Source: Methanobacteriaceae archaeon
Lineage (GTDB): Archaea; Methanobacteriota; Methanobacteria; Methanobacteriales; Methanobacteriaceae
Direction of reading: 5' to 3'
Assembly: GCA_003558085.1 (NCBI GenBank)
Contig: PWMT01000103.1
Coordinates: forward strand, 1-28,845
Length of the DNA stretch: 28,845 nucleotides
Both the position numbers and the translations under genes were made by a program. The notes beneath the pieces are model-generated. The model was not told where the DNA came from and searched no databases. It saw only the letters and a list, made by a program, of their open reading frames with translations. How positions within the stretch are numbered: the stretch's first letter is position 1; each line of letters opens with the position of its first letter. Of the stretch, positions 1,745 to 12,483 are shown one piece after another.

Positions 1745-2152
1745 TTAAACCTCATTAAGCTCAGTTAAACCTCATGAATAAGAGTAAGTCCTCTGCATGT
1801 AAAGATTTTGTTCTTAAATCACTACCAGTTGAATATTTATGAATCCTATTCTTAATTATTTGATTTTAAAGTAAACTTGATTTCTATTTTAATTATTAGC
1901 TAATAGTAATATATCACTTTTAATGGGGGGAAAAATGTGCTTCTTATACCATTTAATAAATTAATTATAAAATTTTCTATTAAGGCAGTAACACTAACTA
2001 TGATTTTTAATATTTTAATAATTTAACAAAACAGTGCACTGGTTTAATAATAATGATAATTTTATTAGTTAGATATACTAAAGAATATTTTTGGACCTGA
2101 GTAGTAATAATAATAACTTTTAAATTTAATTAGATTTTATTAGGTGATAAAA

Positions 2153-3331
2153 ATGGATAAAGTGGTTCTGGCATTCAGTGGTGGTCTTGATACCTCAGTT
2201 TGCATTAAATTACTTGAAGAAAAATACAATATGGAAGTTATAACCGCTTGTGTAGATGTAGGACAACCACAAGAAGAGATAGAACGGCCTGCTTCAGTCG
2301 CTATGGACATAGGTATGAATAAACATTATACTATTGATGCTCGAGAAGAATTTGCTTCTGATTTTATTTTTCCAGCTATAAAGGCCAATGCAGTTTACGA
2401 AGGCTATCCTTTAAGTACTGCTCTTGCAAGACCCTTAATTGCCATGAAAATAGTTGAACTAGCATATAAAGAAAATGCTGATGCTATAGCTCATGGATGT
2501 ACCGGTAAAGGTAATGATCAGTTCCGTTTTGAGGCTATAATTCGATCTTTATCAGATTGTAGAATTATCGCTCCTATTAGGGACTTGAATTTGACCAGAT
2601 CTGAGGAAGTAGATTATGCTCGTTCCTGCGGCATACCGTTACCTCCGGATAATATTTATAGTATCGATGAAAACCTTTGGGGAAGGGCAGTGGAAGGAGA
2701 TATATTAGAAGATCCTATGGTTGAGCCTCCTGAAGATGCTTTTACCTGGACCCGTTCTATTAAAGATGCGCCTGAACAAAGCCAAATCATTGAAATAGAA
2801 TTTAAAAATGGTGTTCCTATTGCTTTAAACGAAGATAAAAAGTATCCTTTTGATATAATTATTAAATGTAATGAAATAGCAGGAATGCATGGCATTGGTC
2901 GAGTGGATATAGTGGAAGATAGAATTCTAGGCCTTAAAAGTCGTGAAATATATGAAACCCCCGGGGCTTTTTTAATTATAGATGCCCATAAGGCACTGGA
3001 ACAGCTCACCTTAACAAGAAATGAACTTAAATTTGCAGAAATAGCCAGTAATAATTATTCGGAATTGGTTTATAATGGAATGTGGCATGAGCCCTTACGA
3101 TAAGGCCTGGATCAATTATTTAATCATATGCAAAGAAGGGTTACTGGCACCGTTCGCATTAAACTGCATAAAGGAAATATGAGAGTAGTGGGAAGAAAGT
3201 CTCCTTACAGTTTATACCATAAAGAAACCGTTTCTTTTGAGGATAAAACAATGGATCAGCGCGAGATGGTAGGTATGGTAAAGAATCATGCTCTACAGGC
3301 TGCCATATATCATCAAGTATGTAAAAAATAA
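2153..3331 (+). pseudogene. argG: argininosuccinate synthase interrupted by one in-frame TAA at 3101-3103
   Basis: [47 protein letters not shown]. The two ORF-track pieces are in the same frame and read [21 protein letters not shown] across the stop. Start taken at ATG 2153 after an AGGTGA RBS. Confidence 0.9.
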
Positions 3332-3734: not shown

Positions 3735-5237
3735 TTAGATCTTCATTGCCTCATCTATAAACCAAATCATTTCAGAAGCGGTGAAATTATATCCTAATCT
3801 TTTTTCTGCTAATTCGCCAGCCCTACCATTAATAAAAGCTCCTAAGCATGCTGAATCAAATGGAGAATGACCTTGAGCTACAAGTGAAGATACTAAGCCT
3901 GCTAAACAGTCCCCAGTACCACCTACCGTCATCCCTGGACTTCCAGTTTTATTGAATCTAAATTTCTCCTGTTGGAAGATGAGATCAAAAGTACCTTTTA
4001 AAAGAACAACTCCTTTTATTTCTGGGATGATAGAATTTAAGATTCTTATCTTTTCTTCCATTTTTAGGGGTATATAAATTTTTTTGTGGAAAAAGGCATT
4101 GAATTCTGCTGAATGGGGAGTTATAATTAGGTCTTCTTTATCTTTTACTTGATCTTTTTTGACTAGTTTTAAAGCATCTGCATCCATTATCAATGGTTTA
4201 TTGATCTTTTGGACTATTAAATTAAATGCTTCCTTGGTAGTTTTATGCTGACCTGCTCCACAACCTAATAAAACGCAATCTACCTTGGATGCCATTTCAA
4301 AAATATTATCCACCATCTCCGTGTTAATAAAATCCCCCTTCAAACCTCTGACTATTAAATCAGGTGAATATGATTTTATGGGCAGTGCTGCTACCTCTGG
4401 ACAGATTACATGTACCAAATCAGCCCCTGATTTTAATGCAGATAATGCAGCTAAAGCAGGAGCTCCTGAATATTCTTTGCTTCCACCTATTACTAGAACT
4501 TGGCCATGAGCACCTTTATGAGCATAAGGATCTCTTTTTTTTATTCTAAGGAGTTCTCCTGCACCTACCATTTGTTCAACTTGTTCCGGTATTCCGATAT
4601 CGCAAACCCGTATTTCGCCACTATAAACTTGATTTAATTTTAAACCTGTTTTAGCGCGGTGAAAGGTAATTGTATAGTCTGCTTTAACTGCTATATCTTC
4701 TATTTTTCCATTCAAGGGATTTAAACCGCTAGGAACATCAACTGCTATTTTTATTCCCGGTGAATTATTAATAAATTTTATGATGGATCTTACTGGTTCT
4801 CTAAGCTTTCCTTTTATTCCGGTTCCCAAAAGCGAATCGACTAGCACGGACTTATCTTGATCAATTCTCACTTTTTCTAAGTACTGGGAGTCATTGATAA
4901 TCTTTAGCTTTAAAGAGGAATTATAATCAACTATATTATTTATTACCTGCCAATTCGATTTGCTTTCTTCGCAACTAAAGTGGCGAGGACGATCTACTAA
5001 AAGAATTTCTACCTGAAAGCCTTGATTTAAGAGATGTCGAGTCGCCACCAGCCCATCTCCTCCGTTTCCACCCATTCCCACAAAAACCTGTACTAGGGGA
5101 GTTGAAATATTTGAACTATCAGATATTTTCTTTATTTCTTGTGCCAGACAATTACCAGCATTTTCCATTAAAGATAAAAGAGGTAAACCCATATTTTCTG
5201 CATTTAGTTCAGTGATCATCATATCTAGCGGATTCAT
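3735..5237 (-). CDS. nnr: bifunctional NAD(P)H-hydrate epimerase/ADP-dependent dehydratase (YjeF)
   Basis: LMENAG, GGNGGDG, DSLLGTG, AVDVPSG (YjeF_N); HKG..G, YSGAP, DADAL, ITPH..EF, GGTGDCLAG (dehydratase domain). Confidence 0.93.
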   Translation of the reverse strand: MNPLDMMITELNAENMGLPLLSLMENAGNCLAQEIKKISDSSNISTPLVQVFVGMGGNGGDGLVATRHLLNQGFQVEILLVDRPRHFSCEESKSNWQVINNIVDYNSSLKLKIINDSQYLEKVRIDQDKSVLVDSLLGTGIKGKLREPVRSIIKFINNSPGIKIAVDVPSGLNPLNGKIEDIAVKADYTITFHRAKTGLKLNQVYSGEIRVCDIGIPEQVEQMVGAGELLRIKKRDPYAHKGAHGQVLVIGGSKEYSGAPALAALSALKSGADLVHVICPEVAALPIKSYSPDLIVRGLKGDFINTEMVDNIFEMASKVDCVLLGCGAGQHKTTKEAFNLIVQKINKPLIMDADALKLVKKDQVKDKEDLIITPHSAEFNAFFHKKIYIPLKMEEKIRILNSIIPEIKGVVLLKGTFDLIFQQEKFRFNKTGSPGMTVGGTGDCLAGLVSSLVAQGHSPFDSACLGAFINGRAGELAEKRLGYNFTASEMIWFIDEAMKI

Positions 5238-5333
5238 AGTATCACTACTTATAAATTATAGTACTAGATATTTAATTATAACTAAAACCAAAAAAAGACA
5301 GTCATTATAAAAATATATATTATATTAACTCAG

Positions 5334-7283
5334 GTGTTTTACTTGGCTCCATTGCGTATTCCCACTTTTCCTATTTCAAAAAATTTGTCTGATGTTACTT
5401 TGTCTAAGTTTTTTTATGCAATACTAGCATTGATAATATTAATAGGATATGGCTGGATCGGTTCTATATTTATCATGGAGTTGGATGTATTAAATGCCAT
5501 ATATTTCGCCATCATCACCATTTCAACTGTGGGTTACGGGGATATTAATCCCATTACCACCATTCAAAAGATTTTTTCCATAAGTCTGGCTATTGGAGGT
5601 GTGGGTTTACTTGCCTATGGGTTTAGCTTAATTTTATCGGTGATTAGTATGACCGTTGAAGAAATAACTTCTGGATCGAAAATAAGGAAATTATTAGCAT
5701 CTACAGAAAATCATTTCATTTTATGTGGTTATGGACGAGTAGGAGCAGCTGTTTTCAAAGAACTAGAAAAAAGAAATCAGAAAGCAATAATTGTGGAGAG
5801 AAACAGAAATTTAGTGGAAAAAGAATTATGGGAAGATCCTGATGTTCTGGCCATACCTGGAGATGGCACTGATGAAAGTATATTGAAGTATGCGGGAATC
5901 AAAAGAGCTAAAGGGGTGATTATCACTACCGGTGATGATGTAGATAATTTATTCATCACTCTTACTTGCCGAGAAATTCATCCTGAAGTATGGATTGTCT
6001 CCCGTGCCAGTAAAAAAGAAAATATAAAACGGCTTTTTAAATCAGGCGCCAATAGAGTTATATCCCCTGAAATAAGTGGCGGAGAAGATATTTATTTTGC
6101 AGCCGTAGAACCCACAATGATGAAAATTACTGTTAAACACGACGTGGAAAATATTAACAAAGAAGCTAATATAATTCTAAAGCATGGCTGTACTTTAGAA
6201 GATATTGAATATCATTTTCCAGAATTTAAGGAGCCTCTTTCTCGTAAAATTGGTGTATCTAAAATAGAACAGTTGAACCAATTTATGCATAGTTTAGAAC
6301 AGGATATTAGTCGTAAAAAATCCCTGGAAAGAATATATGAATCGGTGAGCGGAATTCACTCCCATTGGATTTCTGGCCCGGATAAAGAAAGCCTGGATAA
6401 AGTAAAAAATGAATTTGATAGAGAAGGCTTGCTCTTGGGAGTTAACTTAGATGATAAGGAAATTAAAAAAATGGCTAAGAAGTATGGGTTACTGGTAGAA
6501 GTAGTGTATAAACCAGAAATACTTATTGTAGAAAATCACGGTGTAGATGATATTGTCCAAGAGGCAGATATAATTATCAAAGAAGGAGGTACCTTAGAGG
6601 ATATAGAATACTATCTACCCGGATTTGGGGAACCTCTACAACGTAAGATTGAAATCTCAGATATGAAAGAAGTACATAAATTCATGAATAATCTTGAAAA
6701 AGAATCTTCCCGAAAAGAGTCTTTAGATAGAATTTATACTTTATCTGGAGGGGGAATACATTCTCACCGCATATCAGCAGCAGATACCACAATTCTATCT
6801 AGAATAGAAGAAGAACTGAAAAAAAAAGGATTCTTATTAGGGGTTAATCTATCTAAAGGAGAAATAAAGGAAATAATAGAAAGGTCTGGAAGAGTAGTGG
6901 AAATGCTAGTAAAACATGAAGTAGGAGAAGTAGACGATAAAAAAATAATTATTAAACTTGGGGGGCATATTCTTGATGCTAAACATTATTTACCTGGAGT
7001 CCGCCAAGTAGTTACTCGAAACCTCAATATTAAAACTCAAGAAGATCTAGAAAATTGTGAAAAGGAACTAGAAAAAGAAGATGCAAAACGTTCTTTAACC
7101 GCTCTTTATGAAATATCACGGCATATACATTCCCATACTGTTGCTGCACCAGAAGAAAAAAATATAAGAAAAATTGAGCAAGAATTAAAGAAAATTGGCA
7201 TATTATTGGGAGTTAATCTATCTGAAGATGAAAAATGGGATATTGTAGAAAAAGAGAATGTGAAAGAATTCTGTATAGACTAA
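5334..7283 (+). CDS. 2-TM potassium channel with RCK-N (TrkA_N) domain and three C-terminal 3H domains
   Basis: Selectivity filter TISTVGYGD; Rossmann motif [11 protein letters not shown]; three ~125-aa repeats each with KH/NH...IHSH...G.LLGVNL. True start may be TTG 5343. Confidence 0.85.
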
Positions 7284-7330: not shown

Positions 7331-8224
7331 TTAGAAAAGCTCCTGTAATTTTAGCTGATAGGCACCTAAGCTACCGCCGTAATTACCAGCACTTATTTTT
7401 ATTATTCCTGGTACGGTACAAGCAGCCTTTATACCTTCTTTCATGGCCTGTTTTACTACTTCCTCATTTACACCATCAATAACTATTTCATAAATACCAT
7501 TTACATCAGCTGGAACTTCACTATCATCTACTTCATCCTTGAGAGTTACACACATTTTCTCATTGGTAGAGGCATCTAAAAACTTATATTTATTAGAGCC
7601 CACTTTAGATCCGGAAGCCACCATTCCTCCTGGGAAAGGAGTTATAGTACCTTCAATAGACATTATAGCATCAACAGCTACTTCAGCAGCTATTAGAGCT
7701 GAAGCCTGACTATCTCCCATAATAAAGAAATTTCCACCTGCAACGCCTTCTTTCATACCTAATTCACTATCAATAAGGAAATCCCCCGACATGATAGGAA
7801 TGGAATTCACTTTTCGGCCAGCTACTTCCACTTCTTTTTCAAATCCATCCCCAAAAAATTTTAGTTTAAAACCTATCTTTAATTTTTCATCAGCATCATC
7901 TAGAGCATCAAAAACAGCTGTAGTGGGAGCAGTAAGTATGCCCATTCCAATTCTTTCCAATAATTCATGATCTAATTTTTTTTTGCTAGGATTGCAGATC
8001 ATAACCATATATCCTGGTCTGCCATCAGGAGTTTGCTCAGGTGAAACATAACCATCAATGCCTGCCTCTGCAGGACATCCAATAACTGATGTTCCATAAC
8101 CTGTAGCTTCAGTTGCTGCTATTTTAGCCAGTTTTTTGGTTGCTGCAGTAACTAGTATACGAGAAACTTGTATTCCAAAAGCTTCTGCAAAAGTATCTTC
8201 TATTTCCACGCCATTAATTTCCAT
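7331..8224 (-). CDS. ftr: formylmethanofuran--tetrahydromethanopterin N-formyltransferase
   Basis: [45 protein letters not shown]. Confidence 0.97.
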
Positions 8225-8577: not shown

Positions 8578-9060
8578 TTAGAATTCTATTATATCATAGC
8601 TTAAATCCTGAGGATCCAATAATACCATCGTTTTAGTATCAGTTAGATAACCACAACATTCACCAGGATTTATCATGAGAGTATTTCCTTTTTTAATCTC
8701 TAATTTATGATTATGACCCCTAATTACCACATCATAAATTTGAGATTGAATTAAAGCATCTACTAGAGAGTTTAACTTACCATGAATCACCGCGATTCTT
8801 CGATCAGCAACCTGAATATCCTTAAAATCTTCCAATAAACATAAATCAGAATAAGCTTTTTTAAGCCCTTCCCTTTCACCATCATTATTACCATAAATTG
8901 CTTCTAAGGGAGCTTTTAATTTAGAAAATTATTGAGCAGTGAAAGGAGATATCAAATCACCAGCATGAATTACCAAATCTACCTTTTTTTTGTTTAATAA
9001 ATTTACTGCTTTTTTTATCGCATCTAAATTGTCATGGGAATCAGAAAGAATACCTATCAT
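8578..9060 (-). pseudogene. YfcE/MJ0936-family metallophosphoesterase interrupted by one in-frame TAA at 8929-8931
   Basis: From ATG 9060 it reads [11 protein letters not shown]...[34 protein letters not shown] and continues in frame into the 85-aa ORF (VIHG, GHNH, INPGE); GAGGTGA RBS upstream. Confidence 0.9.
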
Positions 9061-9960: not shown

Positions 9961-10280
9961 GAAGTAAATTAAATATTCATAAAATCATTCCAGATTTTCT
10001 TGAATTACTTATTATTTTTTTAATTAATATTTATAGTTAGCTTATCAAATTTCATTTAAACCTTAATTATTGTCCCTGTTTATTAATCAAAGTATTATAC
10101 AACATGAATTCTTTTTATTAATCATATTAAAACTTATTTTTAATTGTATATCTCCTAAATGAAATTTTACATATAAAAGAAATAATCAATTAGGGATTCA
10201 ACTTATTCCATAATATATCCTACGCTAACCTTAAAAGCCAAAATATTTAAGTACATTTGATTATCTTTTATACGGTATTA

Positions 10281-11711
10281 ATGAGATATGTTGGCAGAAG
10301 AGATCTTTTACTGGTCTTAGAAAATTTAGGTATATTAATGCAGGCCATAGGTATAGGGGTGTTGCTGCCCATAATAGTGGCTTTAATCTATGGTGAGGGG
10401 AATTATATTGGTTTTTTATTGCCCTCGGCTGTTTCTTTCACCTTCGGAACATTACTAAATAGATACATAAATGTTTCAGCACCAGTACGACTTAAGCATG
10501 GCATGATGGTTGCAGGTTTAGCCTGGTTATGGGCTGCTCTAATTGGCAGTATGGTTATGATGTTGGTAGTTAACCTTGATTTTCTAAATGCTTTTTTTGA
10601 AAATATGTCTGGTTGGACCGGCAGTGGTCTAACTATTTTTGCTGATGTGGAAGTTCTACCTAAATCAATATTATTTTTAAGAAGTGTGGAACAATGGATT
10701 GGGGGACTTGGAATAGTTATCGTAGTGATTGGAATACTCATCCGCCCAGGCACAACTGCATCTAAACTTTACAAGTCTGAAGCTAGAGAAGAAAGAATAA
10801 AACCCAGTATCAGAAATACTATTAAAACCATTTTATGGATTTATTTAGTTTATACTTTAATTGGGGTGATATTGTATCTTCTAGCAGGTATGCCGCTTTT
10901 TGATGCCATTAATAATACTATGACTAATCTGGCCACTGGTGGTATGTCCATTAAAAATGATAATATAGGTTTCTATGATAATAATTTGATCTACTTAATC
11001 ACCATGTTTTTGATGATAGTAGGAGCTAGTAGTTTTTTACTGCATTATAAAGTATTTAAAGGCAAAGTTAGGAATGTTATTAATGATATTCAATTCCAAA
11101 CAATGTTAACGCTCATTATTATTTTTTCACTACTAATCATTATTACCAGATTTTTATTACCTTTAGATTCTATTTTCCATGTTATTTCTGCTTTAACCTG
11201 TACTGGTTCCAGCATACAGACTGTTCCTGAAATGAGTGAATGGGCAGGTTATGTTAAAATCGTAATCATGATGGGTATGATAATTGGAGGGGCTGCCGGC
11301 TCTACAACTGGCGCCGTTAAACTAATTCGATTTGTCACTGTAATTAAAGGGATGTATTGGGAAATCATGAAAATTATAACCCCCAAAGGAGCAATCATCC
11401 GACGTACAATTTCTGGAAAACCAGTGGACGAAGCGGAAATTAAAGAAGCTAGTGTCTATATCTCCATTTATTTCCTCTTCATTTTCATTAGCTGGCTGGT
11501 GCTTTCTGCTTATGGTTATGATACTTTAAATGCTTTATTTGAAGTATTTTCCGCGCAAGGAAATGTAGGACTTAGTATGGGAATCACTTCTGCGCAAATG
11601 CCCACTGTACCCAAGCTATTTTTAATATTTAACATGTGGCTGGGACGTTTAGAAATAATACCGGTTATGATTCTTATTAGAGGATTTTTAGAAGTTTTTA
11701 AAATAAAATAA
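10281..11711 (+). CDS. trkH: Trk-type potassium uptake membrane protein
   Basis: FFENMSGWTGSGLT, QWIGGLG, TGGMS, GSTTGAVK, SAQGNVGLS, GRLEI; ATG 10281 preferred over TTG 10257. Confidence 0.93.
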   Translation: MRYVGRRDLLLVLENLGILMQAIGIGVLLPIIVALIYGEGNYIGFLLPSAVSFTFGTLLNRYINVSAPVRLKHGMMVAGLAWLWAALIGSMVMMLVVNLDFLNAFFENMSGWTGSGLTIFADVEVLPKSILFLRSVEQWIGGLGIVIVVIGILIRPGTTASKLYKSEAREERIKPSIRNTIKTILWIYLVYTLIGVILYLLAGMPLFDAINNTMTNLATGGMSIKNDNIGFYDNNLIYLITMFLMIVGASSFLLHYKVFKGKVRNVINDIQFQTMLTLIIIFSLLIIITRFLLPLDSIFHVISALTCTGSSIQTVPEMSEWAGYVKIVIMMGMIIGGAAGSTTGAVKLIRFVTVIKGMYWEIMKIITPKGAIIRRTISGKPVDEAEIKEASVYISIYFLFIFISWLVLSAYGYDTLNALFEVFSAQGNVGLSMGITSAQMPTVPKLFLIFNMWLGRLEIIPVMILIRGFLEVFKIK

Positions 11712-11829
11712 GATGTAACGAAAAGACTTATTAATAGAGATATGCAAAAGAATTAAACTATTCAATAATTCAAAAAGTAAATTTTACAATATAAGCTTTT
11801 AGTGATCTTAATTTATTTAAAAAGGTGTA

Positions 11830-12483
11830 TTGATGTATGTAGTTATAATGGGTGGTGGTCGGGTAGGTTTAACCCTAGCCCATCTATTAATAAATGATGG
11901 TCATGATGTGACTCTAATAGAAAATGATGAAACTGTATGTGGGGATTTAGCAGTAGAATTAGATGCACTTGTAATCTGCGGAAATGGAACTGATACTAAA
12001 GCTTTAGAAGAAGCCAATATTAAAACTGCGGATGTATTTGTGGCTGCTACGGGAAATGATGAAGCTAATCTTTTATCATGCATATTGGTTCGTGAATACA
12101 ATATATCCAAATTAATAGCCCGGGTAAGTAATCCAGACCATGAGGAAGCATTCATAAAGGTAGGAATAGATGCAGTTATCTCACCAGAACGTACTGCGGC
12201 AGGTTATTTAGAAAAATTGATAACTCGACCTAAAGTGGCTGATTTAATCGTTTTAGGCCATGGAAATGCGGAAATATTAGATATGGCTGTAAATAATAAA
12301 AGATTAATCGGGCAAAAAATAGGAGATATTAGTCCCACCGAAGATTATCTCATTGTAGCAGTTTATAACAACGATGAATTGATTATACCCCATTCAGATA
12401 TGGTTTTAGAGAAAAATAGTAAAGTATCGGTACTAGTTAAAACCAAAGCAGTTAAAAAAGTTACTGAATTATTTACAAGTTAA
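11830..12483 (+). CDS. trkA: Trk potassium uptake NAD-binding subunit (single RCK)
   Basis: [30 protein letters not shown], TrkA_C at the C terminus; follows trkH. Confidence 0.93.

Follow-up and report, generated by a model that had tools for sequence, protein, structure and literature searches.

The window analysed here, the whole stretch of 28,845 nucleotides at positions 1 to 28,845 of contig PWMT01000103.1 (GenBank assembly GCA_003558085.1, a Methanobacteriaceae archaeon), carries a gene for a predicted K+ channel whose cytoplasmic regulator ends in three tandem 3H domains. We computed the architecture, conservation, fold, internal start signal and phyletic pattern of this gene. Its open reading frame (ORF) occupies positions 5334 to 7283 of the forward strand, stop codon included, and encodes 649 amino acids (aa) when counted from the first in-frame GTG. 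Pfam recognizes an Ion_trans_2 pore module with two transmembrane helices, a pore helix and a TVGYGD selectivity filter (aa 33-104, positions 5430-5645, E 3.8e-14), then a TrkA_N domain, the RCK/KTN N-lobe with its Rossmann fold (aa 128-245, positions 5715-6068, E 5.6e-31; also seen in the homologue alignment and the structural model), and finally the 3H domain, matched in three stretches with 217 bits (E 2.7e-65; the cut-off is 25). Scanned singly, the repeats at 6126-6434, 6528-6836 and 6906-7205 score 81.9, 86.6 and 72.9 bits against the same cut-off, each spanning the full 97-position profile; the third is the most diverged.

The layout put forward in the original prediction, a pore followed by an RCK N-lobe and three 3H domains, is borne out by Pfam, with each motif found in its place. 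The repeat ranges it had estimated agree with the profile matches on the DNA, the IHSH motifs lie exactly where it had put them (6354-6365, 6756-6767 and 7125-7136), and each repeat has its early histidine (H269, H402 and H528). Its claim that the C-lobe of the RCK domain has been replaced also holds: Pfam reported no match to TrkA_C (PF02080) in the ORF (12 families at E≤1), and the three 3H domains occupy its place. The winged-helix family HTH_11, which NiaR representatives do match, gave no Pfam match in the channel either. All 120 best database matches have the same three Pfam domains and lengths of 596-653 aa; the named sources among them are Methanobacterium, Methanothermobacter and one metagenome bin labelled Methanomicrobiales, and the homologues carry no annotation beyond '3H domain-containing protein', 'NAD-binding protein' or 'voltage-gated potassium channel'. 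Because of the E-values and the conservation in at least 120 database homologues, the architecture is not a product of chance.

The true start of the gene probably lies at the TTG of positions 5343-5345, because the MAPSPIP with which homologues begin aligns to it and because a GGTG at 5333-5336 stands six bases upstream. The segment 5333-5345 (+) would then hold the ribosome-binding site and start codon, the GTG at 5334 being part of this Shine-Dalgarno-like motif and not a start, and the protein would have 646 aa. The AT-rich spacer that separates the ORF from the divergent nnr gene, read directly, spans 5238-5333 and thus has the 96 bp originally described for this head-to-head pair, or 105 bp with the probable start.

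We aligned 18 homologues of 63-77% identity to follow conservation along the protein. The selectivity filter (aa 65-70, 5526-5543) reads TVG[YF]GD in 18/18, and pore and filter are kept in 16 of 17 genes when the window is taken together with 16 related loci. In the Rossmann lobe, the motif GYGRVG (aa 132-137, 5727-5744) provides a G132-x-G134-x-x-G137 loop which, like Glu155 after the second strand, is invariant or nearly so. A GxGxxG loop together with an acidic residue ending the second strand is the mark of nucleotide-binding KTN domains, such as those of TrkA type. Both features are present here, and from them nucleotide binding by the Rossmann lobe may be predicted.

A full-length AlphaFold model (mean predicted local distance difference test score, pLDDT, 83; predicted template modelling score, pTM, 0.48) shows two long membrane helices and a pore helix (helices at 16-46, 52-64 and 76-123), followed by an alternating strand-helix Rossmann lobe. 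Its best fold matches in the PDB (Foldseek) are MthK (E 1.3e-14), then GsuK and Slo1. MthK, the Ca2+-gated channel of Methanothermobacter thermautotrophicus, comes from the same group of organisms and shares the two-transmembrane pore, the TVGYGD-type filter, the RCK N-lobe and an internal methionine some 106-107 residues in, after the inner helix. It differs in having a TrkA_C-type C-lobe and in responding to Ca2+, whereas the present channel has no TrkA_C, carries three 3H domains and has a nucleotide-type GxGxxG; identity in the fold alignment is about 21%. GsuK of Geobacter, gated by multiple ligands and described in the available text on it as having two RCK domains and as being activated by NAD+/ADP, likewise joins a pore to a multi-domain regulator with a nucleotide-binding RCK, but its extra modules are RCK and not 3H, and identity is about 12%.

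Its genome (96% complete) has two Ion_trans_2 genes, and no K+ channel with an RCK domain was found in it apart from the present one. The other K+ channel gene (L033:1321-2142, minus strand; G000:C11) encodes 273 aa with a TTIGYGD filter, several N-terminal membrane helices and a coiled C-terminus, without RCK. Two of the related channel genes have short frames. In locus L006 (G013:C1:1541500-1557500) the frame has only 595 aa and the pore region is out of frame, the filter region reading EESYGDITP, while all sequence from the internal methionine onwards is intact; a frameshift, a pseudogene or a sequencing error may be behind this. The channel frame of genome G020 is similarly short (598 aa).

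The 3H repeats and their pocket

Each repeat contains four putative metal ligands: H269 (6138-6140), E277 (6162-6164), H342 and H344 (6357-6365) in repeat 1; H402 (6537-6539), E410 (6561-6563), H476 and H478 (6759-6767) in repeat 2; and H528 (6915-6917), D535 (6936-6938), H599 and H601 (7128-7136) in repeat 3, where an aspartate stands in the place of the glutamate of the other two. All twelve residues are invariant in the 18 homologues. The NiaR metal ligands (His, Glu/Asp and HxH), of which the original prediction had noted the early histidine and the IHSH, are thus kept in all three repeats.

Their homology to the effector domain of NiaR, which had been proposed together with superposition on NiaR as a test, is upheld both by sequence and by predicted structure. 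A phmmer search of the PDB finds the NiaR of T. maritima at 4.6e-12. A separate model of aa 255-649 (pLDDT 84, pTM 0.53) has three PDB matches at E≤0.001 in Foldseek, and all are NiaR (1J5Y, 7CV0 and 9EBR; template modelling score 0.57-0.59, normalised by target). Each modelled repeat runs strand-helix-strand-strand-helix-helix-strand-helix, with a short strand and then a linker helix behind it; it forms the NiaR-like alpha/beta sandwich with an extra insertion helix and an extra C-terminal strand and helix. A complex prediction with two copies of aa 255-649 scored 0.39 against a mark of 0.42, which speaks neither for nor against self-association.

The available text of the structural study of the NiaR of B. 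halodurans (BhNiaR; PMC7713382) describes a Zn held by E91, H150 and H152, and a niacin carboxylate that coordinates this Zn and is hydrogen-bonded by H83. The pyridine ring lies among M88, L92, V105, L119, F130, M134, L141, L142 and Y112' of the partner chain, and the crystals of NiaR contain Ni or Zn (PMC7713382). In the phmmer alignment, BhNiaR H83/E91/H150/H152 correspond one to one to H402/E410/H476/H478 of repeat 2. Among the pocket positions, M88 aligns to I407, L92 to A411, V105 to I424, Y112' to F431, L119 to I439, F130 to F450, M134 to L454, L142 to I467, and L141 to R466, an invariant arginine. Ahead of the position of R466, every archaeal 3H domain (the channel repeats, the forms from Methanopyrus and the kinase described below) has an insertion of five residues, present in 0/10 of the NiaR-type sequences aligned; it corresponds to the extra helix of the model, and the alignment in its vicinity is less certain than elsewhere. 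By this comparison, the anchoring chemistry of metal and acidic group appears to be kept, while the rest of the pocket would be changed and would gain a positive charge. These changes argue for a ligand that is related in its binding mode to that of NiaR but is not plain nicotinate.

In overall design, NiaR/YrxA, the niacin-responsive repressor of bacteria, has a homologous 3H domain that agrees in its fold and its His/Glu/HxH site, but places one such domain behind a DNA-binding winged helix, whereas the channel places three behind a pore and a Rossmann lobe. The archaeal 3H domains further differ from it by the five-residue insertion, the arginine at a pocket position and, as set out below, a separate clade.

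Gene order, distribution and origin of the repeats

The channel gene is flanked by two minus-strand genes: the divergent nnr (3735-5237; YjeF_N and Carb_kinase in Pfam), for a bifunctional protein of NAD(P)HX repair (NAD, nicotinamide adenine dinucleotide), and the convergent ftr (7331-8224; Pfam), for formylmethanofuran:tetrahydromethanopterin formyltransferase, an enzyme of methanogenesis. A K+ uptake system lies 3 kb downstream on the plus strand (10257-12483), with TrkH at 10257-11711 and, at 11830-12483, a TrkA that has an N lobe as well as a C lobe. We compared gene order at 16 loci, one from each of 16 genomes; the four families of the class are all represented, by 12 genera. The convergent neighbour is Ftr in 16/16, and the divergent one is Nnr in 14/16; in one of the other two Nnr lies 3.8 kb off, and in the last it is not found within 16 kb. 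TrkH falls inside the 16-kb locus in 10/16. The block YdjM-AstE-ArgG-BofA-Nnr-channel-Ftr-phosphoesterase-TrkH-TrkA is collinear across the class. Of five genomes with fewer than three 3H matches whose locus was inspected, three hold a channel with a single 3H domain in the same nnr/ftr slot, and the other two have no channel, with nnr directly beside ftr. The channel gene has therefore been gained, shortened or lost within a conserved block. The original prediction had pointed to the nnr neighbourhood, and the adjacency is indeed conserved; as evidence for a link to pyridine metabolism it fails, because the block is collinear and nnr still stands beside ftr where the channel is missing. Adjacency to nnr is thus conserved gene order that says nothing on the ligand, and we rejected nnr as a functional partner on these grounds.

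Two other genes of the window appear interrupted or incomplete. The argininosuccinate synthase gene (2144-3331, plus strand) is split by an in-frame TAA at 3101-3103, beyond which its frame stays open to 3331 (319 + 75 aa). The corresponding gene of a congener (L014) is an intact 401-aa ORF, and the TAA of the window is a nonsense mutation or an assembly error. At 8578-8835 (minus strand), an 85-aa ORF matches only the C-terminal half of the Metallophos_2 profile, positions 74-152 of 154, and may be a truncated or frameshifted phosphoesterase.

We then looked at the family at large. When 1.84 billion representative sequences were searched exhaustively by phmmer with the 3H region as query, no more than 60 proteins were found at E≤0.001. 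They include one triple-3H representative, five single-3H channels (365-391 aa), a 268-aa protein made of TrkA_N and 3H (P0131), kinase-3H proteins and NiaR-type repressors; short 3H proteins (P0141, P0144, P0160-P0163) are also among the matches. Both single-3H lineages with a name (P0138 and P0145) are Methanopyrus, the only place outside the class in which these representatives place the channel family. The single-3H channels of the class and of Methanopyrus (Ion_trans_2, TrkA_N and one 3H, 365-414 aa) belong to the same family as the triple form and occupied the same nnr/ftr slot in 3/3 cases; they differ in having one repeat and no equivalent of Met106. The Methanopyrus sequences fall into lineages (P0138, P0185, P0145, P0149 and P0187). 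In one lineage HxH is replaced by H-T-Y or H-S-Y, and the filter of a second single-3H lineage is degenerate (TGVGCANPP, CSGYGYL), so that it may not be K+-selective or conduct.

For the distribution, we ran the 3H profile over a sample of 251 genomes from the phylum-level group, which all belong to one class, and counted the matches by hand. The domain was matched at least once in 237/251. Three or more matches were found in 106 genomes and correspond to a triple channel (frames of about 595-680 aa), usually with a kinase in addition. Exactly two were found in 57, corresponding to a single-3H channel plus the kinase; the single-3H channel was present in 8/8 of these genomes that were checked. 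The 74 genomes with one match most likely have the kinase-3H only, as do G026 and G029, which were checked and lack a channel; in two others (G008 and G030) the scan covered all but about 0.28-0.30 Mb of each genome. In the remaining 14 the scan found no 3H domain. The channel family is therefore present in roughly 163/251 genomes. Extra 3H matches were noted in G093, G095, G127 and others of genus g10 and in G017 and G067 of genus g6. Some genomes have six matches including an extra 522-aa frame, possibly a two-repeat paralogue, and two genomes have seven; in G067, one contig carries a tandem duplication, with channel frames of 552 and 648 aa separated by 1.2 kb.

We placed 54 3H domains in a maximum-likelihood tree, which for readability took in 9 of the 17 channel genes. 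It sets NiaR-type domains apart from archaeal ones (100/99 each). On the archaeal side, the channel-type domains (91/79) have a clade of kinase type (99/87) as their sister group, and the Methanopyrus 3H forms branch apart (96/95). Repeat 3 forms a clade (100/100) on a long stem, repeat 2 another (97/94), and repeat 1 a third (95/89), in which three single-3H sequences are also found; the clades of repeats 1 and 2 are each other's closest kin (97/95). Each repeat clade holds all four families of the class, and the triplication is therefore older than the class. That single-3H forms of the class group with repeat 1 fits a loss of repeats 2 and 3. The repeats of the window are 30-50% identical among themselves and 30-41% identical to the kinase 3H.

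A candidate internal start at Met106

Met106, just past the inner helix, is invariant in the 18 homologues, and the nucleotides around it are constrained in a manner that the protein sequence leaves unexplained. In a codon alignment of the 17 genes, 17/17 have G-GTG-(G/A) upstream of its ATG, at -12 to -8; in the window, the internal GGTG at 5639-5642 is followed after six bases by the ATG at 5649-5651 (5639-5651, plus strand), the same spacing as at the proposed TTG start. The alignment has 47 columns with an invariant four-fold-degenerate amino acid, and only at Val103 (GTG) is the third base the same in all 17 genes, the next-best column reaching 12/17. The codon before Val103 ends in G in 17/17 although its amino acid varies (Ser, Thr, Ala, Met), and GTG makes up 174/699 Val codons in 15 of the 17 genes. 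The simplest reading of this pattern is an internal ribosome-binding site, from which a soluble RCK-3H3 protein of about 544 aa would probably be made.

MthK provides a precedent: according to the available text of two reports, it makes a soluble RCK domain from Met107, which was proposed to complete an octameric ring (PMC2573919, PMC2920069). By analogy, the soluble subunit predicted here may join the ring. The same internal start was considered for single-3H channels and rejected, since the Met106 equivalent is absent there. P0131 begins at a methionine 15 residues before GxGRxG.

Ligand, gating and meaning for the family

On balance we think it likely, with some reservation, that the gene encodes an RCK-gated K+ channel with 3H domains as ligand sensors. 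Its pore would be a two-transmembrane, MthK-like tetrameric K+ pore, and its cytoplasmic regulator a nucleotide-type RCK/KTN N-lobe in which TrkA_C has been swapped for three tandem 3H domains. The ring of N-lobes would probably count eight, four tethered to the pore and the others supplied by soluble RCK-3H3 subunits. Attached to each N-lobe would be three 3H sensors, each most likely holding a divalent metal because the NiaR-type His/Glu(Asp)/His/His site is kept, and this metal would anchor a small anionic metabolite by its acidic group. Filling of the 12 sites (24 with the soluble subunits) would alter the ring and open or close the pore, perhaps in concert with a nucleotide in the Rossmann lobe, and K+ flux would thereby follow a metabolic signal. 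Tetramer and ring assembly, binding of metal and ligand, and gating are thus what we infer from the sequence and its relatives.

The only other 3H protein of the genome bears on which metabolite might be read. It is a P-loop kinase of 326 aa whose C-terminal part is a 3H domain (L002:868-1848, plus strand; G000:C166). It matches NCBIfam PRK12338 ('hypothetical protein') with 516 bits, and its kinase part scores 206 and 160 bits with 2-phosphoglycerate kinase (2PGK) models, below their cut-offs. It is a soluble kinase, a paralogue of 2PGK, with one 3H domain, which shares with the channel repeats the archaeal insertion and, as noted, a sister position in the tree. The 3H matches of related genomes occur in similar frames of about 320-350 aa, and the kinase-3H appears widespread in the class. 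A canonical 2PGK (PRK04220) is represented by its N-terminal 146 positions at a contig end (G000:C81:8019-8450, plus strand), where it is cut by the assembly.

According to the available text of PMC10690619, 2PGK and cyclic 2,3-diphosphoglycerate (cDPG) synthetase together make cDPG, both enzymes are K+-activated, and cDPG reaches 0.3-1.1 M in M. fervidus, M. kandleri and M. thermautotrophicus; the K+ of M. fervidus is given as 0.5-0.9 M in that of PMC12136491. NCBIfam has no model for cDPG synthetase, and we located the gene by a short motif and confirmed it by a PDB search: the genome has a synthetase that scores 717 bits with PDB 8ORU. Across the sampled genomes, the synthetase is present in 228/251. 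By hand count, the channel occurs in 160/228 genomes with synthetase and in 3/23 without, two of these three being fragmented assemblies, and one genus is concordant in 18/18 (three genomes with both genes, fifteen with neither). We rejected the synthetase as a predictor of the channel, as it is present in so many genomes and many of them have no channel; the reverse roughly holds.

An anionic ligand other than niacin is favoured by the five-residue insertion, Arg466, the sister clade formed by the kinase, the restriction to the class and Methanopyrus, and the synthetase pattern. The single most likely class, though of low probability in itself, would be an anion of the cDPG pathway (2-phosphoglycerate, 2,3-diphosphoglycerate or cDPG), which in these organisms is the counter-ion to K+. 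Nicotinate or another pyridine carboxylate appears unlikely, and the remaining probability falls to another carboxylate or phosphate metabolite. The fuller proposal, that the 3H domains sense one of these three anions of the cDPG pathway while the 3H of the kinase reads the same signal, in a circuit matching K+ with its counter-anion, is possible but doubtful.

Several points weigh against the mechanism of a 3H-sensing channel or against its non-niacin ligand. The internal start is a sequence signal alone, and single-3H channels, which keep another methionine 15 residues before GxGRxG, have no Met106 equivalent. The inter-domain arrangement is uncertain in both models (pTM 0.48 for the full-length protein and 0.53 for the 3H triple), and the clustering of the histidines follows from residue-by-residue homology to NiaR. 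Not every member of the family has the metal site, as HxH reads H-T-Y in Methanopyrus P0138, and 7/9 of the niacin-pocket positions are still hydrophobic in repeat 2, which leaves some probability for a niacin-like ligand. Finally, the synthetase occurs without the channel in 68/228 genomes (for instance in 19/19 of genus g8), the genomes are related, so that these counts overstate independence, and joint loss of channel and synthetase may merely be genome reduction.

The most probable of the alternatives is the reading of the original prediction, in which the 3H domains would use the metal, as NiaR does, to bind nicotinate or a pyridine compound akin to it. The channel would then report the status of NAD precursors, which would suit the adjoining gene for NAD(P)HX repair. 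In its favour, conservation of the metal tetrad is complete, the hydrophobic positions just mentioned match the niacin pocket described in the available text of PMC7713382, our literature searches found NiaR to be the only characterised 3H protein, and Nnr is adjacent in 14/16 loci. This adjacency belongs, however, to a collinear block and persists beside ftr without the channel; the archaeal 3H clade stands apart from NiaR (100/99), with its five-residue insertion and Arg466 at the position of L141; and in the same genomes 3H co-occurs with a 2PGK-like kinase, not with NAD genes. We therefore regard this alternative as unlikely.

It also seems quite unlikely that the 3H domains are mainly structural, serving as modules of ring assembly in place of TrkA_C while the pore is gated from the Rossmann lobe by a nucleotide, either NAD(H) or ATP/ADP. 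Such a role would agree with the invariant GxGxxG and Glu155, with GsuK among the fold matches, with the absence of TrkA_C and with the dimerisation of NiaR 3H domains described in the available text of PMC7713382. Yet all twelve ligand residues are invariant even though the repeats have otherwise diverged to 30-50% identity.

That the 3H domains are metal sensors in themselves, free Zn2+, Ni2+ or Fe2+ gating the channel with no organic ligand, we hold to be decidedly unlikely, as hydrophobic pocket residues that a pure metal sensor would not need are conserved too. Nor is K+ flux known to us to be linked to the status of trace metals. The twelve invariant metal-ligand residues and the Ni or Zn of the NiaR crystals would suit a metal sensor, but the NiaR metal is, in the available text of the same study, fully occupied in both apo and bound forms and an anchor for the ligand (PMC7713382). 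It is highly improbable that the soluble RCK-3H3 protein is the main product, regulating a different transporter, for instance the neighbouring TrkH, while the pore form is secondary: the internal start signal, TrkH/TrkA 3 kb downstream, the out-of-frame pore next to an intact cytoplasmic part in L006 and the pore-less TrkA_N and 3H of P0131 would fit it, but pore and filter are kept in 16/17 genes, TrkH has its own TrkA alongside and P0131 may be a fragment.

The 3H domain was reportedly first described in a paper of 2001. In its available text, a 2008 paper lists "TrkA-module proteins" among 3H carriers, and two NiaR papers (PMC2330245 is one) mention such proteins in passing in the text available. 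The architecture itself is catalogued and not new, and NCBI names the proteins by domain. Our full-text literature searches, which covered few subscription journals, found no functional study of a 3H channel; the statement of the original prediction that no channel of this architecture has been characterised stands within that scope. The gene thus represents a real, uncharacterised variant of RCK-gated K+ channels. As far as our searches go, the conserved internal start signal, the series of three, one or no repeats at one locus, the restriction to the class and Methanopyrus, the archaeal pocket insertion and the sister relation to the kinase 3H are new.

RCK channels, including the BK channels of animals, are the main model of ligand gating in K+ channels, and all characterised members sense their ligands with the RCK lobes themselves. 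Here the C-lobe is replaced by another sensor, a 3H domain present three times with its metal site whole in each copy, and the family offers a natural test of how far gating rings tolerate foreign sensor modules. The loci with three, one or no repeats form a built-in comparison series, and thermostable orthologues in cultivated Methanothermobacter strains (M. marburgensis or M. thermautotrophicus; P0015 and P0029) suit biochemistry and cryo-electron microscopy. The conserved internal start would extend the soluble-subunit principle of MthK to a second channel family, and it illustrates how conservation at synonymous sites can reveal internal starts. For methanogens with 0.5-1 M K+, the channel is a lead to a regulatory metabolite. 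If it does sense cDPG or its precursors, it would be the first metabolite-gated K+ channel with a sensor of non-RCK fold, integrating 12 to 24 metal-anchored sites per channel, and would provide a first function for the archaeal 3H domain.

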